Source of the DNA: Candidatus Hermodarchaeota archaeon
GTDB taxonomy: Archaea; Asgardarchaeota; Heimdallarchaeia; Hodarchaeales; Hodarchaeaceae
NCBI GenBank assembly: GCA_048886185.1
Contig: JBHLKY010000001.1
Span: 130,436 to 194,435, forward strand
Direction of reading: 5' to 3'
DNA length: 64,000 nucleotides
Part shown: positions 21,191-50,688 of the stretch, piece after piece
Numbering within the stretch: position 1 is the first letter of the stretch
How the letters are laid out: every line of letters starts with the position of its first letter
Notes under the pieces: generated by a model
Database searches by the model: none
Told to the model about the DNA's origin: nothing
What the model saw: the letters and a program-made list of their open reading frames with translations, nothing else
Made by a program: the position numbers and the translations under genes

Positions 21191-22699
21191 ATGAAATCCT
21201 CATTCAATAATAAAATGGATCTCAATGATGAAACCAAGGCATTTTTTAACTTTATTACGCATCCAACTAAATTAGAATCATTAATCATGTTAGAACAGCT
21301 TATTAAAGACACTAAGGATGAAAATCTAAGATGTTTCTGGAAAATACTTTCAGATAAAAATCTAGAATGTTTTAGACTTACATGTAAAGAAAATAATACA
21401 TCTAAGGAAGTATATTATATTGATCTTGAAACTCCGATATTATTTTATCCTGTATTCCAGAATCACATCTCTTTAAATATTGCCTCGAATTTTTTTTCTC
21501 TAGCGAGTAAAATTAAGTCAAATTTATTGAATTTCTATAGTCAAGAAGTCGAAAGTTCTTTTATTTTAATAAAAAAAGGTACAACTGAAAAATTGGTTGA
21601 TTCTTATACTTTTAAAGTAGAAGATCAGGATATCAAATTGTTACAAAGGTCTAATCTTTATAGATCTAGGAGAAAAGAAATATCCCAAAAGAATTTAGAC
21701 AATTTTCTTAAGAATAACGAGTCTATGTTAAATAATAGATTAAAAAAAGACGAAGGGGTTTATGCTTCGCTTGGAGATCATTTGTTATTTAAATCAGATA
21801 GTTTAAATCTTCAAAATGGCAAAAAGCGCTTTCCTGTTGGTCAACGAAACCCCAAAAATCGCTTGAATCTGTTAACGGGGAGAGAATGGATAAAATTTTC
21901 TAAAACATGGTTTATTCATCGTCCTCCATCACGAAAAGATGAAGAATTTTTACATCCTGCTAAATTCCCTGAGACACTTATTAGAAAGTTTATCACCTTT
22001 TTTACAAAACCAGGTGAATTAGTGCTAGATCCATTTCTTGGTACTGGAAGCGCGCTCATCGCTGCTAAACAGAGCAACAGGAGTGGAGTGGGAATTGAAC
22101 TCTCTCCTACTTACGCTAAAATTTCTAAAAACCGTTTAAAAGGAATAAATTCTCTATTATATCCCCCTTTATACCAAACTGATGAATCATGCTTTTGGAA
22201 GGTTATTTGTGGAGATTCTAGGAATTTAAATGACTACTGGGAGGATTTTAATTTACCAACTGTTGATTTTTGTATCACGAGCCCTCCTTATTGGAATCAG
22301 CTCCAACGAAATACTATTCGACAAAGGAAACGAAAACATGAGGGCTTAGATACACAATATAGTTATGATGATCCAAAGGATTTAGGGAACATTGATAATT
22401 ATAACAACTTCCTAAGTGAACAACAGAAAATATTTGGTAATGTTTACGAAATTCTACGACCTAATGGATACTTAGTCATAATCACAAATCATGTTTTTAC
22501 AGATGGACAGGTTTATCCCTTAGCTTATGACACAGTATCTAGTTTAATTAATGATAAAAAACATAATTGGATACAAAAAGATGAAAAAATATGGTTACAA
22601 GATGATAAGTCCTTGGTGGCATTAGGGGTAAATTATGCTTGGGTTGGAAATAGGTGCCACCAGTATTGTCTTATTCTAAGAAAAGAAGTATCAAACTAG
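21191..22699 (+). CDS. DNA methyltransferase (N4-C/N6-A, SPPY type) with a 240-aa N-terminal domain of unknown function
   Basis: 'HPAKFPETLIRKFITFFTKPGELVLDPFLGTGSALIAA' (AdoMet motif I region) precedes 'ITSPPYWN' (motif IV) by about 80 aa. This is a permuted order relative to beta-class enzymes. No adjacent nuclease gene. Confidence 0.7.
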   Translation: MKSSFNNKMDLNDETKAFFNFITHPTKLESLIMLEQLIKDTKDENLRCFWKILSDKNLECFRLTCKENNTSKEVYYIDLETPILFYPVFQNHISLNIASNFFSLASKIKSNLLNFYSQEVESSFILIKKGTTEKLVDSYTFKVEDQDIKLLQRSNLYRSRRKEISQKNLDNFLKNNESMLNNRLKKDEGVYASLGDHLLFKSDSLNLQNGKKRFPVGQRNPKNRLNLLTGREWIKFSKTWFIHRPPSRKDEEFLHPAKFPETLIRKFITFFTKPGELVLDPFLGTGSALIAAKQSNRSGVGIELSPTYAKISKNRLKGINSLLYPPLYQTDESCFWKVICGDSRNLNDYWEDFNLPTVDFCITSPPYWNQLQRNTIRQRKRKHEGLDTQYSYDDPKDLGNIDNYNNFLSEQQKIFGNVYEILRPNGYLVIITNHVFTDGQVYPLAYDTVSSLINDKKHNWIQKDEKIWLQDDKSLVALGVNYAWVGNRCHQYCLILRKEVSN

Positions 22700-23002
22700 T
22701 TTTTCCGATGCTGATAAAGATTAGCTTATCATTAAAGGATTCTTATCCTCATATCACAAATTTCGAAAGAGAAATAGTAGCATGTCTTGTCTCACAAGTT
22801 GGTGTCATAATGGTTGGGAACATGCATTGATTTTAAGGAAGAAGGATTTGATAAGGCATCAAGACTTGTTTTAAGTATGATGGAGGCAATTGGTGAAAGC
22901 GAACAGGCAGATAGATTTTCTTTATTCGATCCTATTGAAGAGTTATTTTAGTTAAAGGTTAGTTAATGTATTTTTAGAAGAGATTCTTAGCAGATTAACT
23001 CC

Positions 23003-23596
23003 TTACAGTAGTTTTTCATAAACGATAATTGGGAAAGTACTCTCTGGAGGATGTTTTTGAGTCAATTGAGAGAAGTTTTTCGATTCTATAATACCCATAA
23101 GGGATATTGGTGTTATTTCATAAGGTAAATCTATTGCATATTTATCAAAAAAGTCAGTAGTTAATAGGACTTCATAAAAACGATGAATTTCCTGAAAAAG
23201 GAGTTTTTCCAGCCATAATTTTATTCCAATGTCATCACGAACCCAAATTTCTAACCGATGGATTGCATAATTTTCTGAAATCAATTTGTATGCTTTTTCA
23301 ATTAATCTTGTTGCTATTTTCTTTCTACGGTATTGGGGATGTACCCCAACGACTGAGATCATACCCCCACGCTCATTATTATTAAAACAAAATTGTCCTG
23401 GTTCTTGTTCAATCTCTATATCTAAAATACCAACAATTTTTTCTTTATAAACTCCGATTAATTCAATACTTGGAGTTTCGTATCTAGGTTTCACTTTAAC
23501 TAATTCATCATAATAAATTGAATTATAATAGGCAAAATGATGACAGTTTATCCAGTCGTCTTCATCTGAAGGATTATAGTGACGGATTTTTAGCAT
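23003..23596 (-). CDS. GNAT-family N-acetyltransferase
   Basis: 'QYRRKKIATRLIEKAYKL' is the acetyl-CoA binding motif A. Confidence 0.55.
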   Translation of the reverse strand: MLKIRHYNPSDEDDWINCHHFAYYNSIYYDELVKVKPRYETPSIELIGVYKEKIVGILDIEIEQEPGQFCFNNNERGGMISVVGVHPQYRRKKIATRLIEKAYKLISENYAIHRLEIWVRDDIGIKLWLEKLLFQEIHRFYEVLLTTDFFDKYAIDLPYEITPISLMGIIESKNFSQLTQKHPPESTFPIIVYEKLL

Positions 23597-23647
23597 ATTT
23601 ATGTCCTCTACGATCTATATGCCTCATTTTGCAATATTTTAAGTAAT

Positions 23648-25777: not shown

Positions 25778-26066
25778 ATCATTTCACACATTTAGAAAAC
25801 TTTAATGAAATTAAATTGATTTTAAGATTCCCAGTTTCTAAGGATATAGACATTAACGACGCTATGTCTACTCCGAATAAAATTGAACAAGGTACTTATA
25901 TTTATAGACAAATTATTTTATTTCAAATGATACAATTGTTGTATTAAATATAAAAAATACAGAAAAACGGTCAAGAATACAAATAGTATTCATTTAAAAC
26001 AAGTCTATTTAAGATCAACGCATATTTTAATAGTAAATTCAAATAATATTTTTAGGTGAATATGTC

Positions 26067-27683: not shown

Positions 27684-27710
27684 TCTAATCTTAATATTCT
27701 TATTAAAGTT

Positions 27711-29986: not shown

Positions 29987-32287
29987 TTGAGAGATTCAAA
30001 GTGCTATACTGAAGAGGAAATTTTAGCAGCTTTAACAAATGCTGTTGATGAGGTTGAAGTCTACACTAGGAAAATTGGCTTTGAAAAGTTTGAACAACCC
30101 CTTGGGTTCTTTTTTGCTCGGGTTTTGGATAATAAAATTACTCGATCTGAGAAAAGAGGAAAAGAACTTAAAACAGCAATTATAAGAGGTGCTGCGTTCA
30201 TTGTAGTAATTCAAATTCTGATATATACTGTGTTATTAAAAGAGGATTCTAAAAGCAGTTTAATTAATACAATACATGATTCTAAACATCTACAATCTTA
30301 TTTTGATGAAATTGAAAACGAAAAGAATTTTGGAGCTATCTTTAATGCTAGGATTGTTGAATTACTTCCTAAAGAATCAGCTGTGACTCTAAATCACGTT
30401 TTTCAATCATTTATCTCTTTTAATAAGTCGCAGTTCACTTCTGATATTCTTGGGAAAATTTTCCATGGATTAATCCCCTTTGAGCTGAGGAAATTTCTTG
30501 CTGCATATTATACCTCAAACGTTGTTGGAGGATTTCTATCATATTTAGCAATAAAAAACGACCAAGTTAAAATCATGGATCCAGCTTGTGGTTCTGGGAC
30601 TCTATTAGTGAGCGCTTATAAGCGAATCATAGAGATCAATAGAAATCTGGATCATAATCAAATTTTACGGAATATCTATGGAGTTGATGTTTCAGCATTT
30701 GCAGCTCAGCTTGCTGCAATTAATCTTGCGATTCAAAAACCTACTGATTCCTGGAACACTTGTAATATTGCCATTCTTGACTTTTTTAGATTAGAAATCG
30801 GAGATAAGGTAGTAGGTTTTAAAGTCCCCAAATTTGATGTTTTTATTGGAAATCCCCCATTTACTCGTGGTGATCGATTAGATAGTGAGTATAAGGACTT
30901 CTTACAAAATCATCTTCTTCATAAAGGAATTTCCTTTGATTATAATAAAAAATATTTGGGTTTATATGCATATTTTCTTCTAGATTCTTTAAGATTCTTG
31001 AAAGCGGAAGGAATCCTTGCTTTTATTCTTCCTCTTTCATTAATTAACTCTTTCACAATGAAACCTGTTCTGAAGTTTTTGATGTCAAAATTTCTCTTTA
31101 TTTACATTATTACATCAGAAGCTCAAATTACTTTTTCAGAGCAGTGCTCATTTAAAGAGATTCTCTTGATTGCCCAAAAAGGGAGAAAGAAGAGTTTTGG
31201 AACTAAATTCGTCACATTAAAAAAGGAATTAACAGATACTAATTATCGAAAAATAGCTGAAACAATAGAAAAGACTACGAAAAATTATGAAGACACAAAT
31301 ATACGAATTAGAACTATTTCAACAAAGACTCTGAAAGAAACTCTAAAAATGAACTGGATTGTATATTTTTACAATAGTAAATTCATCACCATTTTTGATC
31401 AGATAAGACGGTCCGATACGATTTCTCTAGTAAACGAAATAGTTGAAAATCCTCGGTATGATGTGGATCGGGGACTCCGTGCTGGAATTTCTGATTTCTT
31501 TTATCTCCCCAATAAATTCTGGAAAATTGTTGATACATCGAATAATGGGATTAAAATAAAGAATATTAGAGACAGTTCTATTCTAAATCTGTCTTCTAAA
31601 TATCTTGCACCTGTGTTAAGAAAATCTTCTCACTGTAGATGTGTTATTCCAGAATCTTCTGACTATATTGTCGTAATTCCTGATAAAAATGAAAAGGAAA
31701 AAGATGTTGATAATTATATCAAGTGGGCTGTTCAGAAGTTCCAAAAAACAGGATTTGAATCACTAACATTCAGGCATATCAGTCAAAAACGCAAAATTGC
31801 TAGAGTAGCAATCACTCATAAGCTTAGTCTTATAAGTAGTAAGATTATCACTTATTACTCCCCAAAGCCCATTGTTTTAACTGATAATTTTATCTTCATT
31901 AGAACTTTTAATAAAGAGAACGACAAAATTCTAGCTGCTTACTTGAATAGCTCAATATTTCTCTTAACTTATCTTATTCTACGTCGAGAGAAAAGTGGTG
32001 CTCTTGGCCAAATATTTGGTACTGATGTGAGGAATTTCTTTTGTTTGGATCCCCGAAAGGTGAGTTATTCTGACCGATTAGAGCTTATTAAGTTATTTGA
32101 TCATTTTATTAAGGAATCAAGCTTTTTTCCCTCTTTTCGTGAACAGATTAACAAAGCGAAAGAGGAGAGGGATAACATTAGATTTCTACTGGATGAAAAG
32201 ATCTGTGAGACACTTGGAATCAAAGATATTCCACTGTTCTTGAAACAACTTTATGAAACATTAATTGAGGAATTGAAGAAGTTTTAA
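29987..32287 (+). CDS. gamma-class N6-adenine DNA methyltransferase (Eco57I/TaqI-like), TTG start
   Basis: 'LAAYYTSNVVGGFL', motif I 'MDPACGSGTLLVSA', motif IV 'FIGNPPFTRGD', and a roughly 450-aa C-terminal target-recognition region. The first in-frame ATG lies inside motif I, so the start must be non-ATG. Confidence 0.75.
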   Translation: MRDSKCYTEEEILAALTNAVDEVEVYTRKIGFEKFEQPLGFFFARVLDNKITRSEKRGKELKTAIIRGAAFIVVIQILIYTVLLKEDSKSSLINTIHDSKHLQSYFDEIENEKNFGAIFNARIVELLPKESAVTLNHVFQSFISFNKSQFTSDILGKIFHGLIPFELRKFLAAYYTSNVVGGFLSYLAIKNDQVKIMDPACGSGTLLVSAYKRIIEINRNLDHNQILRNIYGVDVSAFAAQLAAINLAIQKPTDSWNTCNIAILDFFRLEIGDKVVGFKVPKFDVFIGNPPFTRGDRLDSEYKDFLQNHLLHKGISFDYNKKYLGLYAYFLLDSLRFLKAEGILAFILPLSLINSFTMKPVLKFLMSKFLFIYIITSEAQITFSEQCSFKEILLIAQKGRKKSFGTKFVTLKKELTDTNYRKIAETIEKTTKNYEDTNIRIRTISTKTLKETLKMNWIVYFYNSKFITIFDQIRRSDTISLVNEIVENPRYDVDRGLRAGISDFFYLPNKFWKIVDTSNNGIKIKNIRDSSILNLSSKYLAPVLRKSSHCRCVIPESSDYIVVIPDKNEKEKDVDNYIKWAVQKFQKTGFESLTFRHISQKRKIARVAITHKLSLISSKIITYYSPKPIVLTDNFIFIRTFNKENDKILAAYLNSSIFLLTYLILRREKSGALGQIFGTDVRNFFCLDPRKVSYSDRLELIKLFDHFIKESSFFPSFREQINKAKEERDNIRFLLDEKICETLGIKDIPLFLKQLYETLIEELKKF

Positions 32288-32322: not shown

Positions 32323-34443
32323 GTGACAATAGAAGAAAGGTTTCCCATTACTATTATTCAACAACTGGCAAAAATAGAGTCTCAGCGACGGCAATTTTAC
32401 CGACCGATATATTCTATCCATAAATCCTGGGCCAGAAGACCAGGGACAACAATACGTGCAATAGGTCTTTCTCATTTCTATCAAGATACTCTCTTTAATT
32501 CTAATCATATAGAAGAAGGAGGATTTTACCAAAATCATTATTTCCAAGGGAAAATTGCTCTCGATCCCTTCTGTGGTGGAGGAACGAGTATAGTTGAGCT
32601 TCATCGTCTTGGAATAAAAACAATTGGGATTGATGTAAATCCAATAGCTTGGTTCACTACAAAAAAGGAATTGGATTCATTTAATGAAGCCACTTTTAAC
32701 CAAGAAGTTAAAAAAATCTTTCAAAGCGTTGGCCAACGAATTAAATCTTATTATAAAACAATATGTCCAAGCTGTCACTATTCTGATGCTGATATTATGT
32801 ATATATTTTGGGTAAGAACCATTCAATGTCCTTCGTGCAACTCCGAGGAAGATCTATTCAAGTATTATATTATTGGTAAGAAGCAACGGAAACATAAAGC
32901 AACAATGGTGATATGTCCTTCTTGTGATCATTTATTTTATACATGGAAGAAGGTTAAAGAAATATCATCTTGTCCAGAATGTCAACATGAGTTTATTCCG
33001 ATACAAGGGAATTGTCGCTTGAAAAAATTCACCTGTACTCATTGTCAGAAAGAATCTAGACTTGTTGAGATACTCCAACAACCTACAAATTCTTTTTCTG
33101 CAAGACAAATAGCAATAGAATTCTTTTGTCCCGAATGTCGAACACGTGATTATAAACCAGTAAATAAAGAAGATAGAAATCTTTTTACACAAGTACAAGA
33201 AGAATTCATGATAAAAAAGGATGAACTCTTATATCCACATGAATTATTACCAATTGAAGGGGATAATATATCAAACCTTAGAAATTATGGTTTTCAACGA
33301 TTTTCAGATCTGTTCAATGAAAGACAGCTACTAAGTTTGAGTCTCCTCATACAAGCAATATCAAAAGTTGCAGATCAGAATATTAGAGAATTTCTCTTGT
33401 CTGCATTTTCTAGTTGTTTAGAATTTCATACTGTAATCTGTCCTTATAATTATACAATGAAACAGATTGTAAATGTGTTTAACTATCAATCTTTTCTTGT
33501 ACCAACCATGTATGTAGAAAATAATGTTTGGGGGACGAAAAAAGGGAATGGAACTTTCATTACTTACCTCGAGAGGATAAAAAAAGCCAAAAAATATTGC
33601 AGATCACCTTTTGAAATAGCTTTTCAGAATAACCAGATTATACGAATCTCTGTACCAGGAGATAATATCGAAGCCAAGTCCGTTAAGACCTTTCAGGAAC
33701 TTCAAGCAAGTTCTAGAGCTGAAACTTTACTTATTAATGATTCCTCTGAAAACCTTCAGAGATTGGGTATTCCTAAGGCTTCTGTCGACATAATAGTGAC
33801 TGATCCTCCTTATTTTGACTATATTCAGTACTCTGAATTGGCTAATTTTTTCTATGTCTGGTTGAGAATAGTTTTGAGACCTTTATACTCAGAATTTCAT
33901 TCTAATTTAATCAATACTGAATATGAAATTGGTAGATTAAAACAAGAGAACCATTTCCTTGAGGGAATAACTAAAGTATTTCAAGAATGTTATAGGGTTT
34001 TAAAGCCAGAAGGTCCGATGATTTTTACATTTCATCATTCTAGTGAAACAGCATGGGCAATGATATTAGAGGCTTTAGCCAAAAGCCAATTCCTAATAAC
34101 TGCTACATTTCCTGTTCGAAGTGAATTTGGTGCTCGTCCTGTTAAAGGACAAAACTTTGATTTTATCATTATATGCAGAAAATATTCAAAAGTAAACCTC
34201 GCCATGAATCATATAAGTCGAACAGTATTAGAGTCAGAGATAAAAAGAAGTTTAGATGATTTTTCAGTTGTTTCTCCTCGAGAACCTGATCTTACTCCGT
34301 GGGGGGTTGCATTTGCGTCTATTCTCCCTATGATATCAAAATTCTCTACATTAAATCAATCTGTAGATATTGAAGAAATCATATTACACACCTTTACCCT
34401 CCTCAAAAACCTTAAAATTCAATATAATTCTAAAACACCTTAA
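32323..34443 (+). CDS. adenine-specific DNA methyltransferase with internal multi-CxxC zinc-ribbon module (COG1743/DUF1156-like)
   Basis: N-terminal 'YRPIYSIHKSWARRPG', motif I 'LDPFCGGGTSIVELHRLG', six CxxC pairs (CPSC..CPSC, CPSC..CPEC, CTHC..CPEC), motif IV 'IVTDPPYFDYIQYSELANFFYVWLR', and 'FTFHH'. Confidence 0.7.
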   Translation: MTIEERFPITIIQQLAKIESQRRQFYRPIYSIHKSWARRPGTTIRAIGLSHFYQDTLFNSNHIEEGGFYQNHYFQGKIALDPFCGGGTSIVELHRLGIKTIGIDVNPIAWFTTKKELDSFNEATFNQEVKKIFQSVGQRIKSYYKTICPSCHYSDADIMYIFWVRTIQCPSCNSEEDLFKYYIIGKKQRKHKATMVICPSCDHLFYTWKKVKEISSCPECQHEFIPIQGNCRLKKFTCTHCQKESRLVEILQQPTNSFSARQIAIEFFCPECRTRDYKPVNKEDRNLFTQVQEEFMIKKDELLYPHELLPIEGDNISNLRNYGFQRFSDLFNERQLLSLSLLIQAISKVADQNIREFLLSAFSSCLEFHTVICPYNYTMKQIVNVFNYQSFLVPTMYVENNVWGTKKGNGTFITYLERIKKAKKYCRSPFEIAFQNNQIIRISVPGDNIEAKSVKTFQELQASSRAETLLINDSSENLQRLGIPKASVDIIVTDPPYFDYIQYSELANFFYVWLRIVLRPLYSEFHSNLINTEYEIGRLKQENHFLEGITKVFQECYRVLKPEGPMIFTFHHSSETAWAMILEALAKSQFLITATFPVRSEFGARPVKGQNFDFIIICRKYSKVNLAMNHISRTVLESEIKRSLDDFSVVSPREPDLTPWGVAFASILPMISKFSTLNQSVDIEEIILHTFTLLKNLKIQYNSKTP

Positions 34444-34501
34444 TAATCCTAATGACAAGTTTTTAAACAAAACAAACAATTTACAAATAGAAGTGAGCTT
34501 G

Positions 34502-35155
34502 ATGACTGGAGAATACTTTGGGCAATTATTAAAGGATAAGGACATTCATAAAAAAGGAACAGAGTTATTTGTTAAGCTTGTTGAATCACTAGAAGAAGCT
34601 TATGATAAATTCGAAAAAGCATTGAAAGCATGGCGAGGAGGTGACTTTGAACGAGGTTTCATGTTACGTGATGAGGTAATTCAACTGGAGAGAGATGCAG
34701 ACAAAGTAAAGGATATTTTTTTTGAAACAATTTTCAAAAAAAAGGCATATCTCCCTCAGATAACAGAGGAGCGTTATAACATGATGTTGAATGCTGATCG
34801 CTTATTGGATCGGATCGAAAGAGCAGTTAGAATCGTTTGTGTGAAAAAAATTGATGCTAGTTATTTCCCTCCAGAACTCGATCGGATAATAGATTTAACT
34901 GAAGATGTTATTGAAGATTTCGTAGAAGCCAATAAACTATTTTTCAGTGACTTTGAAAAGGCATCAAAGCTCGCACGTAAGGTAGAGGAGAAGAGGGATG
35001 AAGTACGTGATCTTTTTTACATTATTTCAGAAAAAATAGTTAATGACGAACTCCCACGAGGTACAAGTAGAATACTAGATGCTACTACTCGTATTAGCGT
35101 CGAAGCAGAGCAAGGTTCAGATTATTTAAAAGTTCTTATAGCTAAACATAGTTAA
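34502..35155 (+). CDS. DUF47 / PhoU-like phosphate transport regulator
   Basis: A helical protein, 'VIQLERDADKVKD...' and '...VEEKRDEVRDLF', classically paired with PiT. The ORF-track start at 34370 overlaps the upstream gene and is not used. Confidence 0.6.
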   Translation: MTGEYFGQLLKDKDIHKKGTELFVKLVESLEEAYDKFEKALKAWRGGDFERGFMLRDEVIQLERDADKVKDIFFETIFKKKAYLPQITEERYNMMLNADRLLDRIERAVRIVCVKKIDASYFPPELDRIIDLTEDVIEDFVEANKLFFSDFEKASKLARKVEEKRDEVRDLFYIISEKIVNDELPRGTSRILDATTRISVEAEQGSDYLKVLIAKHS

Positions 35156-35175
35156 TCGATAGAAGGTGTAATACC

Positions 35176-36244: not shown

Positions 36245-38422
36245 ATGAAACAGAAGATTCAAAGATCAGAAAAAGTAATCGAGAATTATTTTCCATTCTC
36301 AAAGGTCAATGAAATTGCCTACAGAGAGAGTAATGCGAAGAGGTACTATCGTCCTGTTCTAACTCTGCATAAGTGGTTTGCTCGCCGATTAGGTTCTGTT
36401 TTTAGATCTATTCTCATCTATTCTTCACTTTCCTCAGTAAAAAACGATGTTAAAGCTGTCAATGCTTCGTACGAAGACAATATCCTGGCATTGGAACATG
36501 ATTTTTGGAATCTGTATTTACAAGAACATAATTTTGAAGATATTATTGTTATAGATCCTTTTATGGGAGGGGGGACAACAATTATTGAAGCCATTCGTTT
36601 AGGCTTTGGTGGGATTATAGGTGGTGATTTGAATCCTGTCGCTTGGTTTGCAGTAAAAAAAGAGCTAGAAGAAGTTAATATTAATAGTTTAAAGGTAGAA
36701 TTTGAGAAATTATCATCCAAACTTAAACATGAGCTTTCTATATATTATAAAACACAATGTGGTCATTGTTCGAATCATGCGGATGTAATGTACTTTTTCT
36801 GGGTAAAAGAGATTCAATGTGAGCATTGTTCAACAACTACTCCCCTTTTCCGAAGTTATTTGTTTGCTTATGATCGTAAGGATCCTTCATCAGGTCATTT
36901 TATTTGTCCTAAATGTCAAACCATTTTTCACGGAATTTTTAAAGAGGATCTTTACTGTCCTGAATGTAGCTGGATCTTTGATCCATTTTCTTTTGTTGTT
37001 AAACGCGGAAAAATTTTTTGTCCCAGCTGTGAACATACAGCTAAAATTGTAGATGTTTGTGCAAAACAGGGAAAGTCCCAGGAAAGATTATATGCTATAG
37101 AATATTATTGTTCTTATTGTAATACACGTGATTACAAAAGAGCTGATATAAATGACCTTGACCTCTATCAACAAGCATCTCATGAATTTAAGATGATTCA
37201 GAAGTTATTACCACTTCCTAACCAAGCTATCCCTATGGGAGCTAAAACCCAGGAATTATTAAATCATCAAATTCTCTTTTTTACCGATATGTTCAATATG
37301 CGTCAACTACTTTCTTTAGGAAAATTATTGAGGGAAATTCTGGAAATTCAAGATCAAAATATAAAGGAATTCTTTCTTATAACATTTTCAACAGCTTTGG
37401 AATATAATAATCTTCTGTGTGAATATCATAGAAAGAACCATTACATCTACAATTTATTTCGAAAACATGCCTTTCCTGCCACATTGAACCCTGTTGAAAA
37501 TAATGTATTTGGTACAGCAAAATTCGGTACAGGAACTTTCAAAAACTTCTTTTCGAAGACCATTCGAATTAAACAATTTTGTAGGAATCCGTACGAATAC
37601 TATATTACTGAGGAAGGGAATACTAACCGCCAATCTATGAAACGTTCAATTAAAGGGAGAGTAGTGTCTTCATATTCCAAGCTCATGCAAGATCCTACAG
37701 AAAATATTTATCTCTATTGCCATTCTTCTGACCAAATTCAGGTTCCAGATAATAGTGTGAACTTAGTAGTAACAGATCCTCCCTATTACGATAATGTTCA
37801 GTATTCTGAGTTATCAGATTTTTATTACGTTTGGTTGAGATTAGGACTTAAGGATCATTATCCCTGGTTTAGTTCAACATTAACTCCCAAAAAAGAAGAG
37901 ATTGTAAAAAATATAAAAATTGGAAAAAAAAGTAGTGATTATCAACAGGGCTTAAAAGAAGTATTTTCAGAGATTTCCAGAGTCTTGAAAACTGATGGTT
38001 TGTTAATATTTTCATTTCATCACAAAGAATTACAGGCTTGGACTTCAATAATACAGAGTTTATTGGATATTAATTTCTACATCACAGCAGTTTATCCTGT
38101 GCGTGGTGAAATGGAGACCAGTACACAGATTCGAGGTAAAAAAAGTATTGAATTTGACGTCATCTTTGTCTGCAAGAAACGTTTGGGATATTCTCACAAA
38201 AACATGTGGGAAAGACTTCTTCCTAAGATTAAGAAGAGTATAAAGGACAAAATAACCCTTCTGAGTAATACTGGTGACTTTCTTTCAAAGGAAGATCAAT
38301 TTGTAGTTCAACTTGGTGTTGGATTAAAGTATTTCACAAAATACTATCCTAATATTACCTTTAATTCAAAATCTTTGGCTTTAAAGGAAGCTTTAGAAAA
38401 TCTCGCATCGCTCACTTATTGA
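36245..38422 (+). CDS. paralog of 32323-34443: Zn-ribbon adenine-specific DNA methyltransferase (COG1743/DUF1156-like)
   Basis: Colinear with 32323-34443: 'YRPVLTLHKWFARRLG', 'IDPFMGGGTTIIEAIRLG', six CxxC pairs, 'VVTDPPYYDNVQYSELSDFYYVWLR', 'FSFHH'. Confidence 0.7.
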   Translation: MKQKIQRSEKVIENYFPFSKVNEIAYRESNAKRYYRPVLTLHKWFARRLGSVFRSILIYSSLSSVKNDVKAVNASYEDNILALEHDFWNLYLQEHNFEDIIVIDPFMGGGTTIIEAIRLGFGGIIGGDLNPVAWFAVKKELEEVNINSLKVEFEKLSSKLKHELSIYYKTQCGHCSNHADVMYFFWVKEIQCEHCSTTTPLFRSYLFAYDRKDPSSGHFICPKCQTIFHGIFKEDLYCPECSWIFDPFSFVVKRGKIFCPSCEHTAKIVDVCAKQGKSQERLYAIEYYCSYCNTRDYKRADINDLDLYQQASHEFKMIQKLLPLPNQAIPMGAKTQELLNHQILFFTDMFNMRQLLSLGKLLREILEIQDQNIKEFFLITFSTALEYNNLLCEYHRKNHYIYNLFRKHAFPATLNPVENNVFGTAKFGTGTFKNFFSKTIRIKQFCRNPYEYYITEEGNTNRQSMKRSIKGRVVSSYSKLMQDPTENIYLYCHSSDQIQVPDNSVNLVVTDPPYYDNVQYSELSDFYYVWLRLGLKDHYPWFSSTLTPKKEEIVKNIKIGKKSSDYQQGLKEVFSEISRVLKTDGLLIFSFHHKELQAWTSIIQSLLDINFYITAVYPVRGEMETSTQIRGKKSIEFDVIFVCKKRLGYSHKNMWERLLPKIKKSIKDKITLLSNTGDFLSKEDQFVVQLGVGLKYFTKYYPNITFNSKSLALKEALENLASLTY

Positions 38423-43989: not shown

Positions 43990-45063
43990 TTATTCCTTTT
44001 TCTGAGGCAATCTATATGCTCTTGCTCGTCTGATGCCCATTTGTGTATAATAATTGATAACACGGTGAAATTCTAACCTTTTTAATTTCTCTCGTTGGCC
44101 CTGAATTGATAAATCAATGAAATATTCTTTCATTGCAGGAGCCAAATCATGAGCAACTTCAATAGGTATTTTGTTCCATTTTCTCAGAAATTTTTGTAAT
44201 TTTAAGAGTTTTCGGGGATTATTAATCACAAATACGTTTTCTTCAGTTGTTATGAAATCCATTGCTTGCATAGATTGAGCTCCAAACACAAGACGAGCGG
44301 GAAAGGCTTCAAAAAGCAACTGACAATAGTTCACAATAACAGCTGAAAATGCACTTATGAGGGCTGAATCTAGCGGAGAATCATACTCTAAATGGATTGG
44401 TACTCCTGCACTTGAGTGAATGACTCCCCAAGGACGAGACGGTGTTAATGTTGAAAAATGAGTTTCGAACAGCTCTCTCAACAAGGCATGAAAAAACAGC
44501 AATTCTTCAAAACTTAATGCAGAGAAGGAACATTCACCATTCCCCACTGTTACATTTTCATTATAGGTTACTGCATTTATTGCTTCTTGGAAAAGCTGAT
44601 CTACGATGTTTTTATCATGATTATTTTCTTCTTGTGAGTAAAATTGTGAATAGATGACTGAAGCACCCCCTGCAAGAATACTCCTCATTTCATCCCAAGG
44701 AGCAGTTTCTAATTCTATTCGACTCATTAGTCTTGTCGTGACAAGAGGGTCAGAAATAACAATGCTGAATCTCTTCAATTTACTAGATAGATTTACAATC
44801 ATAATTTCTCGTGCTTGACTTGGGTGAGGACGAGGATATCTTAACCTTACAATTCCAATTCCCTGACCCCACAATTCTGCTCCTAATCTACTGACAGATC
44901 TCACGAAATCGAGTGTTTGTTCAAGCTTATCTTGGTTGAGATCACCAAAATGCCATTTCACTTCGTTTTCACTAGTTAGAATTGCCCAATTATTGAGATA
45001 TAAACGACGCTGATTAGTAATCATTATAGAATGTTCTCCATGTCTGTTTTTTCTAATGTTCAA
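43990..45063 (-). CDS. hypothetical protein (357 aa), no recognisable motif
   Basis: Long ORF in AT-rich DNA and last gene of the minus-strand operon 46814-43990. The C-terminal paralogous remnant downstream argues it is a real protein family. Confidence 0.5.
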   Translation of the reverse strand: MNIRKNRHGEHSIMITNQRRLYLNNWAILTSENEVKWHFGDLNQDKLEQTLDFVRSVSRLGAELWGQGIGIVRLRYPRPHPSQAREIMIVNLSSKLKRFSIVISDPLVTTRLMSRIELETAPWDEMRSILAGGASVIYSQFYSQEENNHDKNIVDQLFQEAINAVTYNENVTVGNGECSFSALSFEELLFFHALLRELFETHFSTLTPSRPWGVIHSSAGVPIHLEYDSPLDSALISAFSAVIVNYCQLLFEAFPARLVFGAQSMQAMDFITTEENVFVINNPRKLLKLQKFLRKWNKIPIEVAHDLAPAMKEYFIDLSIQGQREKLKRLEFHRVINYYTQMGIRRARAYRLPQKKE

Positions 45064-45183
45064 TCGTTATCTTTAGTACTTCAATGAGGGGACTAAAAAG
45101 GATTTATTTATTAATTATGTAAAATGTAAATAGTAAATTTTCGCAGAATGTTTAGAATTATTTTGTTGCTTTCAATCTTTTTA

Positions 45184-46461
45184 TTAAGACAGAAATAATA
45201 TATCATATATTAAGGTGCCATAATAATTTTCAGTTTCAATTATGGTGATTTGCAGTAAATCCATTGCAGCTTTTTTTCCAACTATCTTAGATAGATTATG
45301 TAAAAGTGAGTCCAAAAATGGGAGGAATGCGTTTTGAAAAAGTGGTGTCATTATTTGTGGGCGAGTATTTAATACAGCTTCTAATTTTTCAAAATATAAG
45401 CCTTTCATATAATTTTCTACAAGCTTAGCAATAGTTATTATCCTTCCTTTGTTTTTTGCCCGTTCTAGCTCATGATTAAATATTGTCTCAAAGATTGTGA
45501 AAGTGAAATTTTCTCCAAACATTTTAACCAGTTGGAGGCGAAATAACTTTAGAAATTCTTCAAAAACAATTAGTAATAAACCAGAATCAGACAAGAGGCT
45601 GATATAACCACTAATTGACAGATATCGAAATAGTTGGATCATCCTCATTTTTTCTTGTGTTGTTAAATTCGCAGAGAGAGACTTAATTGAATGTCTTCCA
45701 TCAATTTTTTGAGTAATCTTAATTCCCCATTCTCCCCAATGTTTAAAAATTGTCTGATAGGCCATTCCTTGTTCTAATATGATACCGATATGAGCTTTTT
45801 CGATTTTAAAAATATCAGTGTTTTTTATTGCAATATCCACTGATTTTAAGTATCCTATCTCTTTTAATATTGCTGTTCTAGCAATACAATATTCTAATGG
45901 CCAATTAATTTTGCGAGAGATTTCTATAATAGCTAATTTCCCATCAAATAATTCCAATAGGGGTTTGTACTTAGATGGGATCTCTATTCCTCTATTTTTA
46001 TAAGCTTCATCTTTTATTTGTTTGAAAATAAGGTTCTCATCTAAATGAGATAGCATAAATTTTCGAGTTAATTCACGAAAAGGAATGTATCTCTGGGTTT
46101 GTATATTTTGTTCTTTGATTTCCTTTAAATAATTAAATTCGAAAATATCAATGATTGCTCTAATTTTTTCCATTAAAATTTGACTTTCATTATCTACTAC
46201 TAAAATAGCTTCGATTTCTTGACCACGTTCAAACATTATTTTCTTTCCTTCCCTTTCAATCACATTTAATGTTCCACTCTCGCTTGATATATTATCCATC
46301 ATACTATCAGAAAATGTCGAAATAGCATTTACCAATCCTCCTAAAATAATGGAATCAGTACGAGGAGCATAACTACTAAATTTAATGTCAAAAATTGTCA
46401 AACCAGAGATGTTTAACAAAAAATAAATGAGACCAGCTTTATCTAGGGATTCATTACTCAT
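45184..46461 (-). CDS. hypothetical protein (425 aa) with a possible N-terminal longin/roadblock-like alpha/beta module
   Basis: N-terminal beta-beta-alpha-beta-beta-beta-alpha pattern ('GLIYFLL','GLTIFDIKF','SIILGGLVNAISTF','TLNVIERE','KKIMFERG','IEAILVVD','SQILMEKIRAIIDIF'). The rest is helical. Confidence 0.45.
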   Translation of the reverse strand: MSNESLDKAGLIYFLLNISGLTIFDIKFSSYAPRTDSIILGGLVNAISTFSDSMMDNISSESGTLNVIEREGKKIMFERGQEIEAILVVDNESQILMEKIRAIIDIFEFNYLKEIKEQNIQTQRYIPFRELTRKFMLSHLDENLIFKQIKDEAYKNRGIEIPSKYKPLLELFDGKLAIIEISRKINWPLEYCIARTAILKEIGYLKSVDIAIKNTDIFKIEKAHIGIILEQGMAYQTIFKHWGEWGIKITQKIDGRHSIKSLSANLTTQEKMRMIQLFRYLSISGYISLLSDSGLLLIVFEEFLKLFRLQLVKMFGENFTFTIFETIFNHELERAKNKGRIITIAKLVENYMKGLYFEKLEAVLNTRPQIMTPLFQNAFLPFLDSLLHNLSKIVGKKAAMDLLQITIIETENYYGTLIYDILFLS

Positions 46462-46814
46462 TTTGGTGCATCATCCAATTTGACGGGACTTGCGGGTTTT
46501 TTTGCTTTAGTTTTCAGCTCATCAAAAAATACTGAAATCTTCCATAATCCAAAGAAAACAAACCCAAATCCTATACTAATCAATACAAGAAAAACTAATT
46601 GTACTAAAGGATTCCAAATTGGATCCTGATAGTTTAAAATTGAGATAATTGTTTGAGAAAGCAAACCACATGAAATAAAAAATGCTCCTAGGCTAATAAT
46701 CTTATTACTGGTTCCAAAAATTCCTTCTAACCGAAATTGTTTAGCAGTTGTAACAAGACTAATCATCATGCAGCATCCATAAAGCATACCACGAATAATG
46801 TCATATTCTTGCAT
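46458..46814 (-). CDS. small 3-TM membrane protein
   Basis: 118 aa. It overlaps the downstream gene by 4 nt. Confidence 0.45.
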   Translation of the reverse strand: MQEYDIIRGMLYGCCMMISLVTTAKQFRLEGIFGTSNKIISLGAFFISCGLLSQTIISILNYQDPIWNPLVQLVFLVLISIGFGFVFFGLWKISVFFDELKTKAKKPASPVKLDDAPK

Positions 46815-47009
46815 ATTTTCACCATCAATTTCCTAGCGACTTTTATTAACTCTTAATTCTCCCTATAAATTCATTTGTATCCAAAATAATTCTGATTTTA
46901 AACTTATGTTCAACAGGAGTTTGGTTTCTAAAACTTTTTAATACGACAAATATCTAATGAGATCTCACTATATAATAATTCCTGAATTAGAAACGACTTG
47001 AGTGATAAT

Positions 47010-48962
47010 CTAATGATGATTAAAGTACTTGTGGTGAGTTTCTAATTGTTTGATTACTTCTTTTTTAAATAAATCAGGTAATCTATAAAGCTCAAAAATT
47101 AAATCATCTAATGAACAACATAATTCTGATATTTTTCCTTTCTCAGTACAGAATGGACATAATTGTAAGAAAATCTCTTTAGAAGATGAAAACTGCTCAA
47201 GTGACTTGCTAAGGGAAGATACTTCTTCTTCGATTGAAGTGCAAATATCATTTTTCAAAGGATTAAGTCGAGGTAGGGGTATCAACCCTATATCTGCTGG
47301 CGGAACAGCTGCTGTTAGGTTAATCTGATGGATAAACCAGTTTATTAGAAGAGAGTTAAAAATTCCTAATAATAAATTAGTAGAAACATATATTGAAGTC
47401 GAATTACAATCTAAAAGAAAATAATTCAAGTTATTTTCGACCCAAATTCTGTTGTGAGTTTTAAGGTGGTCTTCCGAGATCAAACCAGAAACAACTCTAC
47501 GTAATTGTTCTCTAGCAGTAATTCGTTGGAACACAATTCGGGGAGTATTGGCGTGCTTTTTTCGAAAGATAGTGTTATCCATTGATGATGGTTGTAAGTA
47601 CCAACGAGGCTTATGGCGATTTTCTGATAGATTGATTATAAAAGGATGGACATTCTTCCCATTTAATACAATCTCGAAATTTGAAATGTTATCTTTTTCA
47701 AGAATCTTTTTATAGTAAAAAGGTCGGATTTTGCTATCAGCAGGTCTTATTTCTCCGCTTTGAATTTTGTATACATCTTTTAAACAGATAGAATTCTTTC
47801 TAATAAGCCTAATTATTTCAAATGTTTTAGGGTATGGTGAAGGAATAATTTTATCCTGAAAAAGTAGAAGGGGGGTTGAAATGTCACCTTCAGTAATTTC
47901 ACCTAGGACTAATTCTTCTATATTACAGGTTCGTATTATATGAGTTTGCTCTTTTTCTTCACCCCCTTTCTTCTTCTGTAAAACTAATAAGCAGGTTCCT
48001 TGAAGAACATTAGGAAAGATATGAGTTCGACTTACAAAATCAACCACTTCGCGTAAATGGAATTGCGAGAGAAGGAATTTACGAACCTCTACACTATAAT
48101 AATCAGTCAATACTGAATTTGAAGTTAAGAAAGTTGCGATTCCATCTGAAGTCAAAAGCTCATTCACACGGGTTAAAAAAAGGTGATAAAGATTAAATCG
48201 ATTAATAAATATCTGTTTTTGGTATAATTGGCGATAAATTTGGTTATCTTTTGATGAAATATCTTTTGTTACATAGGGTGGATTACATAAAACGAGATTA
48301 AAACCTTTATTTTCATGATTAAAAATTCTTGGAAATTCCTTATACCAATGAAAAAATTGATTTTCGTTAATACTTAATTCTTCTTTCTGGAGTAATTCAA
48401 GAAATCTTTTTTGATCTTCAGGTTTAGTACTTCCAAGTAAGACATTACCATGCCTAATCTGGTGATTTAAAGTGTTCTGCACTTCTTTGAGCTTATTTTG
48501 AGTTAAATTGGATTCATTTTGTCCTAATAACCATTTTTTTAGCTCCTTTTGGCAAGTATGAATTGCTTTAGGATTAAAATCTACTCCATGTAAATTGTTC
48601 TGGATTATCTGAAATCTAACATCTGTTGAATCTGAGGAATTACAATGAATTGCTTCTAGAAATTTACCTGCTTCTAAAAGAAAAACTCCATTTCCAACTC
48701 CAAGATCGAGAATTTTGATATCCTTTATTAGCTCTTGCATTTGTAGGCGTGTTGAATAATTAATGGTATCTTTAGGAATTTTTGATGCTGTTACCTGTGA
48801 TAAGAATTTCAATAATAATTTTTTAGGTAATCGTTGGTGAAAAAATTGTTGGAATGCCGACCAGACCACAAATTGAGCTAGTATGGTTGGTGTGTAATAG
48901 GTACCAAGCGATTCTTTCTTATTTGAGGATTTCACTTGTAACACCTGGTGAGACCCGTTCAT
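47010..48962 (-). CDS. gamma-class N6-adenine DNA methyltransferase
   Basis: 'LGTYYTPTILAQFVV', motif I 'ILDLGVGNGVFLLEAGKF', motif IV 'LVLCNPPYVTKD', then a roughly 330-aa C-terminal region with a 'CPFCTEKGKISELCC' ribbon. Confidence 0.75.
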   Translation of the reverse strand: MNGSHQVLQVKSSNKKESLGTYYTPTILAQFVVWSAFQQFFHQRLPKKLLLKFLSQVTASKIPKDTINYSTRLQMQELIKDIKILDLGVGNGVFLLEAGKFLEAIHCNSSDSTDVRFQIIQNNLHGVDFNPKAIHTCQKELKKWLLGQNESNLTQNKLKEVQNTLNHQIRHGNVLLGSTKPEDQKRFLELLQKEELSINENQFFHWYKEFPRIFNHENKGFNLVLCNPPYVTKDISSKDNQIYRQLYQKQIFINRFNLYHLFLTRVNELLTSDGIATFLTSNSVLTDYYSVEVRKFLLSQFHLREVVDFVSRTHIFPNVLQGTCLLVLQKKKGGEEKEQTHIIRTCNIEELVLGEITEGDISTPLLLFQDKIIPSPYPKTFEIIRLIRKNSICLKDVYKIQSGEIRPADSKIRPFYYKKILEKDNISNFEIVLNGKNVHPFIINLSENRHKPRWYLQPSSMDNTIFRKKHANTPRIVFQRITAREQLRRVVSGLISEDHLKTHNRIWVENNLNYFLLDCNSTSIYVSTNLLLGIFNSLLINWFIHQINLTAAVPPADIGLIPLPRLNPLKNDICTSIEEEVSSLSKSLEQFSSSKEIFLQLCPFCTEKGKISELCCSLDDLIFELYRLPDLFKKEVIKQLETHHKYFNHH

Positions 48963-48977
48963 TTCAACAATAATTAT

Positions 48978-49778
48978 TTATAGAAAGCTGTCTAGATTGA
49001 TGATTTGACTCCGATTAATATATTCAAGTCGAGATTGAAAAGATTTGGCATTTTCCAAATTCTTCTGAGACTCAAGAACATATTCTGGATTGATTTCAAT
49101 CCCTAGATATTTGCGATCGAGGAGTTTAGCTACGATTGCAGTTGTTCCTACTCCAAGAAAAGGGTCGAAAACTAGGTCTCCTTCATCAGAAGATGTCAGA
49201 ATTATCCTTTCCATGAAAGTTAAAGGTAATTGAGTAGGGTGTTTATCATGTCTCTTCTTTCTATGCTTGATTCTATAAATATTAGTCCAGATATCTGAAA
49301 ATGGCTTTTCTATCAAAGGAGTATTGATTCGTTTATCAATACATTGTGCTCGTGCGCAATGAGTCCAATTATGCTTAGAAGTTAATTTGTTGAACGTGTA
49401 CTTCTTGTTTGATTTTGTGTAGAAAAGTAATGAATAATGAGCAGGCATTATCTTACCACGGGGAGCTGATAAAGCATCCCAAGCGATGGTATTTTGTCGA
49501 AATAAGAATTTATCTAAAAAAACTGCATGATTAATAGCCCATTTTGGAAGATTTAATAGATAGAACGATCCGTCTGGCTTTAATAATCGTACTATTTCAA
49601 TAATCCATTTTTCAGCCCATTTAAGATAATTTTGAGTGGTAGTGGAATCATCATATATACCATAATCTTTCTCCAGATTATAAGGAGGATCTGCAAAAGC
49701 TAAATCGACTATGCCTGAGGGAAGGTTTTTCATTTCTTCAATGCAATCCCCATTGATAATTCGATTTTCAAAACTCAT
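48978..49778 (-). CDS. beta-class DNA methyltransferase (N4-C or N6-A)
   Basis: Motif IV 'AFADPPYNLEKDYG' is N-terminal. 'FSDIWTNIY', 'HPTQLPLTFMERIILTSSDEGDLVFDPFLGVGTTAIVA' (motif I) is C-terminal. Confidence 0.8.
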   Translation of the reverse strand: MSFENRIINGDCIEEMKNLPSGIVDLAFADPPYNLEKDYGIYDDSTTTQNYLKWAEKWIIEIVRLLKPDGSFYLLNLPKWAINHAVFLDKFLFRQNTIAWDALSAPRGKIMPAHYSLLFYTKSNKKYTFNKLTSKHNWTHCARAQCIDKRINTPLIEKPFSDIWTNIYRIKHRKKRHDKHPTQLPLTFMERIILTSSDEGDLVFDPFLGVGTTAIVAKLLDRKYLGIEINPEYVLESQKNLENAKSFQSRLEYINRSQIINLDSFL

Positions 49779-50688
49779 AAGGATTCACTCCATCATAAGG
49801 AGCAAGAAGTAGAGTTGATGTAGAGGTGCATGATAAGTCAACTAATCGTTTTAAGACTGAAGAAAGTAGCGGATTTACTGTAATCAGTTGATTAGAAGAA
49901 AAATCTGGATGCCAAATGTCTGATAATACCATTCCATTTCTATGTCTAAGGTGTTTTTTTCCGCCATAATCTTTTAGTGGTTTATTACAAAAGGAGCAAA
50001 AACGATATGGTATCCTAACACGATTAATTCTGAATTTTTTAGGAGATTTCACATAATACAAGATACAATTTGCTTCTGATTTGTATTTTCTTGAAACATC
50101 AACATGAGGGATTTCCTCTGAATAAACAATCCAATATTTAAAATAAAGACCTAAATGATTAAGTTTAACACCAAAATAAGGTAAATAACGAGGAATTGAA
50201 TGGATCAAAACATTTCCATTGGATTTTAGAATCCGTAAAGTCTCCTCTAGGTAGCCATAAACTTCTTTTATAAGTGATGAATTAGAAATGTTATGATATG
50301 ACGAAGTATCTTGTTTCTCCTTAAATGTAAATTTTGGAAAAAGAATCCACGTATCAACACTTTGATCCTTAATTTCAGCTAATTTCTTCATTTCAGACGA
50401 TTGTAATACTATAAAGTTTGATGGAATGATATCCTTAACACTGTCCCTTCTATGTTTACGTGCTAGAAAACGTTCCTTTCCTGCCTCAGGATCCTTAATA
50501 TTGTAAACTGCCATCAACTCTGATAATTTGAAGAATCCTTTTACCTTTAAGGGATTTTTAAGCTGTGTTCCATTTTTGTCATACTTTTTTAATAAACCAC
50601 GTTCTATTTGTAGTCGGATGTTCTCCTCCGCATGATTGGAATAAATCACTGCATCTTTCAATGTTATAAAACGATCACGTTTAGGCAT
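49768..50688 (-). CDS. catalytically degenerate paralog of the adjacent beta-class methyltransferase
   Basis: Colinear with 48978-49778: 'VDTWILFPKFTFKE' vs 'VDLAFADPPYNLEK' (DPPY becomes FPKF, nt 50329-50340); 'SDIW' conserved; 'LLLAPYDGVNP' vs 'LVFDPFLGVGT' (FxGxG lost). It overlaps the downstream MTase start by 11 nt. Confidence 0.55.
   Translation of the reverse strand: MPKRDRFITLKDAVIYSNHAEENIRLQIERGLLKKYDKNGTQLKNPLKVKGFFKLSELMAVYNIKDPEAGKERFLARKHRRDSVKDIIPSNFIVLQSSEMKKLAEIKDQSVDTWILFPKFTFKEKQDTSSYHNISNSSLIKEVYGYLEETLRILKSNGNVLIHSIPRYLPYFGVKLNHLGLYFKYWIVYSEEIPHVDVSRKYKSEANCILYYVKSPKKFRINRVRIPYRFCSFCNKPLKDYGGKKHLRHRNGMVLSDIWHPDFSSNQLITVNPLLSSVLKRLVDLSCTSTSTLLLAPYDGVNPYEF

Follow-up and report, generated by a model that had tools for sequence, protein, structure and literature searches.

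Solitary DNA methyltransferase genes in two probably inherited modules of a Hodarchaeales-type archaeon

DNA methyltransferases (MTases) are not always partnered by a restriction enzyme. Known persistent orphans include Dam, CcrM, the haloarchaeal CTAG N4-methylcytosine (m4C) MTase HG1 and the archaeal Dam-like HG3, which have no cognate nuclease nearby, occur taxon-wide, and keep both their position and their recognition regions (PMC10609329). Among the 29 persistent archaeal systems published, 20 belong to the orphan MTases of Type II (PMC10609329). Depletion of a short word accompanies a persistent orphan MTase too, as is seen for CTAG in Halobacteria (PMC10609329). Here, we describe a block of seven MTase-family genes, M1 to M7, at positions 21191-50688 of a 64,000-nucleotide stretch of Candidatus Hermodarchaeota archaeon (contig JBHLKY010000001.1, positions 130,436 to 194,435), referred to below as the window. 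In our view, the block is probably made up of two modules of inherited, solitary DNA MTases of the persistent orphan kind, rather than of restriction-modification (RM) systems or a mobile defence island. We favour this reading because related genomes keep the genes in place and have no restriction enzyme alongside. The likeness to the known orphans lies in the missing nuclease, the conservation across the lineage, the stable positions and recognition regions, and the depletion of a short word, here CCGG. The difference is that seven family members share one 30-kb neighbourhood and are of unusual types: short DUF1156 paralogs, Type IIG-like gamma-class MTases whose recognition domains are large, and a dead paralog.

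Knowledge of DNA methylation in Asgard archaea is sparse. The REBASE survey included one Asgard genome, which carries 17 MTase genes; its Type II MTases number 11 and its IIG genes four, and no Type II restriction endonuclease (REase) was recognised in it (PMC10609329). The first Asgard methylomes, those of Atabeyarchaeia and Freyarchaeia, followed in 2024, with 11-13 methylated motifs in Atabeyarchaeia (10.1101/2024.03.22.586370). In the literature that we searched, there is no description of this conserved MTase block or of the M6-M7 pair presented below. The concept of the orphan MTase and its precedents are already published; the variant reported here is a block of MTases plus a pseudo-enzyme.

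The seven open reading frames (ORFs) sum to 11,784 of 29,498 bp, or 40% of the region. Because the survey mean is 2.7 Type II MTases per archaeal genome (PMC10609329), and the single Asgard genome has 17 MTase genes in total, seven MTases per 30 kb is far above what random scatter would give; by our rough Poisson estimate, the chance would be about 1e-10. The window is archaeal chromosomal DNA, with CDP-archaeol synthase, geranylgeranyl reductase (GGR) and further housekeeping genes, and a G+C content of 30-38%. An identical sequence is present in assembly GCA_048938455.1 (contig JBHLMD010000002.1, 267,851 bp) and in several Logan assemblies. The nearest relatives of its proteins come from metagenome-assembled genomes (MAGs) labelled Hodarchaeota/Hodarchaeales and Heimdallarchaeota, together called Hod/Heimdall here. 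Scans of the whole window for tRNA genes and Rfam families came back empty.

An earlier reading of the letters (the sequence-only reading) had counted seven MTases. All seven ORFs exist, and scans with Pfam, PADLOC and NCBIfam each assign them to DNA MTase models; the count is better given as six intact MTases and one conserved pseudo-MTase, M7. N6_N4_Mtase (Pfam) is matched by M1, M3, M4, M6 and M7, the last weakly (29 bits), and N6_Mtase/Eco57I by M2 and M5, of which M5 also matches TaqI_C. The S-adenosylmethionine-binding and catalytic motifs are intact in M1-M6, and both are kept in all or nearly all of the orthologs examined. M7 has neither (D/N/S)PP(Y/F) nor FxGxG.

Gene order was compared through a one-genome-per-species scan with an alignment of M3 and M4, then tblastn of all window proteins, plus homolog look-ups. 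The order GNAT-M2-M3-PhoU-PHO4-M4-Vut1 recurs in seven Hod/Heimdall genomes, and M3-M4-Vut1 in further ones. Among the related loci, M2-M3-M4 are syntenic in L007, L008, L009, L012, L013, L033 and L083; M3-M4 occur without M2 in L011, L014 and L015; and M4-Vut1 is seen in L016, a locus that begins within M4. The upstream part, ABC-M1-GNAT-HAN-phosphoesterase-membrane protein-GNAT-M2-M3, is found in CP070760.1 and in a JGI contig (L092, L093). At the other end of the block, GGR-M7-M6-M5 is found in CP070695.1, CP070760.1 and CDPJYH010000045.1 (L089, L090, L118), and M7-M6 alone on two more divergent Asgard contigs (L091, L117). Order and position are thus kept in more than 10 related genomes, and extensive orphan methylation, one of the two options offered by the sequence-only reading, is well supported by seven genes that are positionally conserved in Hodarchaeales/Heimdall relatives with no nuclease alongside. 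Averaged over orthologs, the MTases are 0.51-0.66 identical, similar to the 0.49-0.72 of the neighbouring housekeeping genes, and in M2 and M5 the recognition regions match the catalytic cores in conservation. A patchy, horizontally transferred distribution is not what is seen; among the homologs sampled, all full-length M1 clusters and all M7 clusters come from this lineage.

Two other origins for the block were considered and rejected. M5-M7, together with the neighbouring genes unk118 and unk425, are absent between unk357 and GGR in L011, L014, L015, L016 and L033, which could have meant a strain-specific insertion island. The idea was rejected: CP070695.1, CP070760.1 and CDPJYH010000045.1 share GGR-M7-M6-M5 in synteny, and unk118 and unk425 are a separate conserved pair. 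A recent viral origin was rejected as well: there are no relatives of M3/M4 in viral contigs, and M7 has only active beta-class MTases there, at 28-31% identity. From these homologs, a viral origin of the MTases seems unlikely.

The second basis of our reading is the lack of a partner nuclease at the locus. The earlier statement that no PD-(D/E)xK, HNH, PLD or helicase gene adjoins the MTases is borne out: when all remaining ORFs of the window were scanned with Pfam, PADLOC and NCBIfam, they either fell into housekeeping families or had no match, and no restriction-type nuclease, helicase or PADLOC defence family is among them. PglZ, BrxC and other genes of bacteriophage exclusion (BREX) systems are also missing from the window, there is no DUF499 ATPase among the neighbours, and no ORF in the intergenic gaps exceeds 99 aa. 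The sole annotated nuclease, two genes from M1, is a HAN/RecJ-family enzyme of housekeeping or repair type. In the related loci examined, no nuclease was found next to the MTases, the only HNH gene being an RRXRR protein in L117, which is taken up with M7 below.

The sequence-only reading had also suggested that partner nucleases might be hidden among the proteins encoded at 43990..46814 (minus strand), namely unk357, unk425 and unk118, none of which has a Pfam, PADLOC or NCBIfam match. This suggestion is unsupported. As a nuclease candidate, unk357 was rejected, for it stands beside tRNA-edit and GGR genes in five relatives (L011, L014, L015, L016, L033) that have no MTase there. The pair of unk118, a membrane protein, and unk425 was rejected likewise, since in CP070695.1 and SDBT01000016.1 (L087, L088) it lies well away from every MTase. 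All three are core genes of the lineage and are not partners of the MTases. Two further proteins near M2 were dismissed as nucleases: unk207 has two apparent transmembrane helices, as we read the alignment, and stays in place where M2 is absent, and unk157 is DinB-like by eye only and has no orthologs in relatives. In addition, a Type I system at 8613-14433 (plus strand), guessed from ORF sizes, was rejected when Pfam found no HsdM, HsdR or HsdS.

M1 (21191..22699, plus strand) encodes 502 aa and matches Pfam N6_N4_Mtase at 9e-28. Its core is permuted and m4C-like, with FxGTG at 282 followed by SPPY at 364, and its best PDB matches are TTHA0409 and N4C MTases. An N-terminal alpha/beta domain (aa 10-145) is joined to this core by a long helix and a disordered linker (aa 148-201), the whole N-terminal extension being about 210 residues long. 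Full-length homologs, in about 60 clusters, occur only in Hod/Heimdall-type MAGs, and keep SPPY in 57/57 and DPFLGxG in 55/57 cases. The core of about 290 aa is widespread, and the source names of the core homologs give no hint of specificity. Two such short homologs, in Heimdallarchaeum endolithica (L119, 2676-3827) and in a Bacteroidota MAG (L120, 4903-5907), each lie beside an unannotated ORF of 334-383 aa; a short RE..T.(I/L)GQ.I.Y motif is common to the two neighbour ORFs, which may encode cognate REases.

The N-terminal domain of M1 (21191..21856, plus strand) was the other place where a hidden nuclease had been suspected. Its fold is confidently predicted: the AlphaFold2 (AF2) model has a predicted local distance difference test score (pLDDT) of 83 and a predicted element order of H-E-H-H-E-E-E-E-H-E-E-H. 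The domain is lineage-restricted, with 7 representative clusters among 1.84 billion proteins, and its conserved residues are D78, E80, P82, Q118, E121, K142, D145 and Q146. Foldseek found no PDB match with E below 0.08, the best being at 0.08, and Pfam searches on 24 members gave no consistent match and no nuclease family. By our reading of the predicted secondary structure, D78 and E80 seem to sit at a hairpin turn, off the canonical PD/(D/E)xK positions; placing the conserved residues by eye on the predicted strand order yielded no canonical catalytic triad. We regard an active nuclease in this domain as decidedly unlikely. A derivation of the domain from the ORFs beside the short core homologs was also rejected, with an hhalign probability below 1%.

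M2 and M5 are the two gamma-class N6-adenine MTases of the block. M2 (29987..32287, plus strand) encodes 766 aa with NPPF at 289 and DPACGSG, and matches N6_Mtase, Eco57I and MmeI_Mtase in Pfam. It has a helical N-terminus, as read from the sequence, and a large C-terminal target-recognition region whose windows are as well conserved as the catalytic core. NPPF is found in 8/8 orthologs, and syntenic orthologs are 45-58% identical. M5 (47010..48962, minus strand) encodes 650 aa with NPPY at 227, and matches Eco57I (3.5e-25) and TaqI_C; its MTase core begins at about residue 60, and its best PDB matches are M.BseCI and the orphan CamA. With their gamma-class core and TaqI_C-like recognition region, both proteins resemble Type IIG/IIL enzymes (MmeI, Eco57I) and the BREX protein PglX. 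They differ from the former in having no nuclease domain: against the PADLOC IIG profiles, the alignment begins only at profile positions 233-368 (about 233-347 for M2 and 368 for M5), so both are without the N-terminal nuclease end of Type IIG enzymes. They differ from PglX in scoring 56-59 bits against a cut-off of 500 and in having no BREX partner genes.

M3 (32323..34443, plus strand; 706 aa) and M4 (36245..38422, plus strand; 725 aa) are paralogs of each other, with 35% identity (4e-134). M3 is a short-form DUF1156/HmaB-like MTase with DPFCGGG at 83, four Cys-pair zinc ribbons, and DPPY at 494; M4 has DPFMGGG at 106 and DPPY at 511. In PADLOC, M3 matches HmaB (5e-36) and DUF1156_MTase, and M4 matches HmaB (7e-37). 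Pfam gives N6_N4_Mtase for M4, and DUF1156, for M4 only, at 21 bits versus a threshold of 24. The NCBIfam model NF042963 gives 101 bits for M3 and 130 for M4, against a cut-off of 1000. Both genes are syntenic in relatives, DPPY being kept in 10/10 orthologs of M3 (54-67% identity) and 11/11 of M4 (52-72%). They are present in 13 Hod/Heimdall species representatives. Neighbour-joining places each of the two paralogs in a monophyletic clade, and the two clades agree in their internal order. The likeness to HmaB/NF042963 lies in how motif I, the zinc ribbons, the helical region and DPPY are laid out, at 33-43% identity over about 700 residues. The differences are that M3/M4 are 150-250 residues shorter at the C-terminus (the NCBIfam model has 960 aa), that they are duplicated and stand among housekeeping genes, and that no helicase or ATPase partner of the Hma system is found in the window or in the Hod/Heimdall loci.

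Homologs of M3/M4 outside Asgard are 806-965 aa long, except for one 736-aa Bacillota protein, and many of them lie with a large AAA ATPase, an SNF2 helicase, McrB/McrC and a conserved protein of small size. The homologs from Thor and Promethearchaeota are short as well (678-738 aa); the Thor locus that was checked has a GNAT gene and an ECF transporter as neighbours. A GNAT-MTase link conserved between the Thor and Hod lineages was considered and rejected: the Thor GNAT is orthologous to neither GNAT of the window. The DUF1156/Hma defence MTase has old paralogs in M3 and M4, which lack about 150-250 of its C-terminal residues and its helicase/ATPase partners. Between the two genes lies a PhoU_div + PHO4 phosphate-transporter pair (34370..36219, plus strand; Pfam), which belongs to the context and is not an MTase. 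The pair is found at this place in L007, L008, L009, L012, L013 and L033; it is absent there in L011, L015 and apparently L014, where M3 and M4 are close together. A transporter pair within an apparent MTase operon is odd; the gaps that flank it are 20-25 nt, and the intergenic gaps from M2 to M4 are all 35 nt or less.

M6 (48978..49778, minus strand) is a complete beta-class MTase of 266 aa, with DPPY at 30 and DPFLGVG at 207. It matches the whole Pfam N6_N4_Mtase profile (1.3e-48) and is PRK11524-like in NCBIfam (1e-45). M7 (49768..50688, minus strand; 306 aa) combines an N-terminal helix-turn-helix (HTH)-like domain with a beta-class MTase fold. It has FPKF in the position of DPPY and a degenerate 'LLLAPYDG' at motif I, and the protein ends 7 residues later. 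Neither DPPY nor FxGxG is present in 35/35 members of the M7 family, the N-terminal HTH-like region being the best conserved part. The family comprises 38 homolog clusters, all of them Asgard. Its profile matches M.MboIIA in PDB at 5e-14, and Foldseek with the AF2 model (pLDDT 78) finds MboIIA, BceJIV and CcrM at E of about 1e-9, with MTA1 and METTL3 ranked lower (E 1e-6 to 1e-5). Compared with the beta-class enzymes M.MboIIA, M.BceJIV, CcrM and M.RsrI, M6 is thus a complete member; M7 has the same fold, and differs in having lost motif IV, motif I and all beyond, and in having gained a conserved HTH domain.

M6 is directly downstream of M7 in 6/6 contexts; the genes overlap in 5/6 and are 13 nt apart in the sixth. 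In the window, the overlap is 11 nt, the gap from M6 to M5 is 15 nt, and M7-M6-M5 is a probable operon. An intact enzyme encoded with a dead paralog that bears or brings a DNA-binding module is also known from METTL3-METTL14 and from the ciliate MTA1-MTA9 with the DNA-binding proteins p1/p2. The difference is that Pfam places M7 and M6 in PF01555 only and not in MT-A70, and that the pairing of M6 and M7 is known here from the genes.

Two loci with relatives of this pair carry a nuclease-like neighbour. The viral relatives of M7 are active beta-class MTases, 28-31% identical, one of which is intact with DPPF and DPFMGTG. This nearest active relative (L094, 4269-5918, plus strand, viral contig; 315 aa with DPPF, KDYGGKK and DPFMGTG) comes directly after a 233-aa ORF with a PD...DVK pattern, which is likely to encode a Type II restriction enzyme; the pair suggests what the ancestral state of the M6/M7 family may have been. 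On a Hodarchaeales contig (L117, 4016-5401, minus strand), a 461-aa RRXRR+HNH protein is just upstream of a divergent M7-M6 pair. From its pair of domains, it would be an IscB-like, transposon-type nuclease, and it is probably no restriction partner, because the related locus L091 does not have it at that place.

The base composition of the window carries one further signal. CCGG is the sole strongly depleted short word, with an observed/expected ratio (O/E) of 0.31 in the window. The depletion is seen in every sampled Hod/Heimdall locus whose genome has parts of the M1-M5 set, the O/E of the others being 0.10-0.56. The pooled O/E over 410 kb is 0.39 (z −17); the loci sampled were the whole window, L007-L016, L033, L083, L087-L093 and L118, of which L091 itself is not depleted. 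The depletion is absent in L091 and L117, which have M7-M6 only, as well as in the Thor loci and a haloarchaeal locus. It might reflect restriction pressure or mark a rare methylated signal, comparable to CTAG in Halobacteria, and M1 is the obvious candidate for the writer of CCGG. In all Thor-type loci sampled (L022-L044, Thorarchaeota and related), it is GATC that is depleted, with O/E 0.34-0.53, and CCGG has its normal frequency, a pattern that suggests that another signal, of methylation or of restriction, runs through that lineage.

Taken together, we propose that module 1 would consist of M1 ... M2-M3-(PhoU/PHO4)-M4 and module 2 of M7-M6-M5. M2-M6 would write N6-methyladenine (m6A) and M1 would write m4C, forming a fixed set of marks on the host chromosome. 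These marks may serve self-marking or the regulation of replication, repair or transcription, like those of Dam, CcrM and the haloarchaeal CTAG MTase. M7 would be a partner of M6 that binds DNA or regulates, with no catalysis of its own. The MTases are probably inherited vertically and derived from ancestors of defence type. A bolder version, which we put forward only tentatively and hold to be a good deal less probable than not, is that M7 and M6 form an obligate heterodimer that writes adenine marks on DNA (the HTH of M7 reading and M6 methylating), a prokaryotic counterpart of METTL3-METTL14/MTA1-MTA9; with the five other persistent MTases, it would make up an inherited epigenetic toolkit, one member of which, most plausibly the m4C-type M1 with its unique N-terminal domain, would be connected with the rarity of CCGG throughout the clade.

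Several points weigh against the reading of inherited solitary MTases. We infer both the marks and DNA as their substrate from sequence, and the interaction between M6 and M7 is proposed from gene overlap and co-occurrence. The CCGG depletion is specific to the clade that carries the block and could reflect restriction pressure, of which it is a classic signature. Sequence methods can miss REases, and Type II REases often escape detection. For this reason, and because only 64 kb of a 268-kb contig were seen, REase partners elsewhere in the genome are possible; the unannotated ORFs beside M1-core relatives in other phyla could themselves be REases. Foldseek searches of the M1 N-terminal domain against BFVD reached a best E of 0.016 and returned several weak PD-(D/E)XK entries with TM-scores of 0.35 or less. 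Finally, the closest relatives of M3/M4 outside Asgard are, to judge from their neighbours, defence-associated.

Most of these points bear on a cryptic RM system, in which at least some of the MTases would still have a cutter. It would either be fused to the MTase, with the M1 N-terminal domain as a divergent PD-(D/E)xK nuclease and M1 as a Type IIC-like enzyme, or be an undetected REase elsewhere in the genome. The arrangement of M1, from a compact alpha/beta domain through a helical connector to the MTase, is Type IIG-like; its N-terminal domain has invariant or near-invariant acidic and lysine residues, and PD-(D/E)XK entries are among its weak Foldseek matches; the CCGG O/E of 0.39 is limited to this clade; and the short core homologs adjoin the unannotated ORFs described above. 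However, the structural matches are not significant, the 24 family members include no Pfam nuclease, and D78/E80 are not at the positions of the canonical fold in our reading. The domain also has no relationship to the ORFs beside the short homologs, positional conservation over such a long time is atypical for RM systems, and depleted words also go with persistent orphan MTases, as CTAG does in Halobacteria (PMC10609329). We therefore regard a cryptic RM system as improbable.

A different explanation is defence or counter-defence that needs no nuclease. The genes would then be remnants or parts of BREX/Hma-like immunity, or a methylation shield against REases from viruses, plasmids and neighbouring cells. 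The resemblance of many clustered MTases to a defence island, the matches of M3/M4 to HmaB and DUF1156 antiphage models and of M2/M5 to PglX, DrmMI and MAD2 (all under cut-off), and the ATPase, SNF2 helicase and McrBC beside non-Asgard homologs would all agree with it. But the neighbours in the block include no PglZ, BrxC, helicase, DUF499 ATPase or any PADLOC match, and the NCBIfam scores are 56-130 bits against cut-offs of 500-1000. Defence genes usually turn over, whereas gene order and recognition regions are stable here over deep divergence, and there are no close viral copies. We consider this explanation quite improbable. It is still less probable that some members, chiefly the zinc-ribbon-rich M3/M4, have given up DNA and, in the manner of other (D/N)PPY enzymes, methylate protein glutamine or RNA (m2G/m6A type) instead, an idea that we think highly unlikely. 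M3/M4 are core genes in an operon-like arrangement with housekeeping genes, and they weakly match the RNA-MTase models UPF0020, Cons_hypoth95 and TIGR01177. These matches, however, are under cut-off and cover the shared motif regions only, and the best full-length relatives are the DNA MTases of defence systems, at the 33-43% identity given above.

Hodarchaeales-type archaea are often placed nearest to eukaryotes, which gives the block its wider meaning. If these genes are inherited genome-markers, Hodarchaeales-type archaea would keep a fixed methylome of multiple m6A and m4C marks, and a role of DNA methylation in their replication, repair or gene control would be directly testable. The locus would also show the domestication of defence-type enzymes: an Hma/DUF1156 MTase that shed its partners and was duplicated, and IIG-like MTases without nuclease domains. 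M6-M7 would be a prokaryotic case of an active enzyme retained with a dead, putatively DNA-binding paralog. A caution for annotation is that such MTases are not to be tallied as RM or defence systems.

The remaining genes of the window offer a few observations of their own. The interval from M1 to M2 holds a GNAT gene, the HAN-type RecJ-family nuclease, a double calcineurin-like phosphoesterase, a small putative membrane protein and a two-domain GNAT. The nuclease and the phosphoesterase (23648-27683), which lie between the two GNAT genes within the MTase block, are highly conserved (0.69-0.72). The former is a HAN (Hef-associated) nuclease (NF053577, 542 bits) with an extra N-terminal zinc finger of the DnaJ type, CxxCxGxG. 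The latter, a 538-aa protein with two calcineurin-like domains, has a weak likeness to the DS9 anti-phage phosphoesterase and to Mre11, far under the cut-offs.

The genes unk118 (encoding a 118-aa membrane protein) and unk425 form a conserved overlapping pair (45184-46814, minus strand), which is also present in L087 and L088 and is found in Hod/Heimdall-type Asgard only. For unk425 there are 29 homolog clusters, all of the same lineage and all of about 425 aa; its N-terminus is roadblock/longin-like by eye. Just downstream of unk357 (43990-45063, minus strand), a 59-aa ORF (43770-43949, minus strand) is a clear paralog of the C-terminal 50 or so residues of unk357; the gene call is also made in L003, and the shared pattern is …HDLxPAMKEYFxxL…H…IN…MGIxRAxxYxL. 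Towards the start of the window, three tightly packed genes (8613-14433, plus strand) encode a C-type-lectin/BNR protein of 438 aa, followed by two proteins that match no family, of 1108 aa and 394 aa. Towards its end, a 1532-aa protein (55598-60196, plus strand) has a faint DUF4785 match, and a gene for about 1550 aa occupies the same position beside UvrA in L118.

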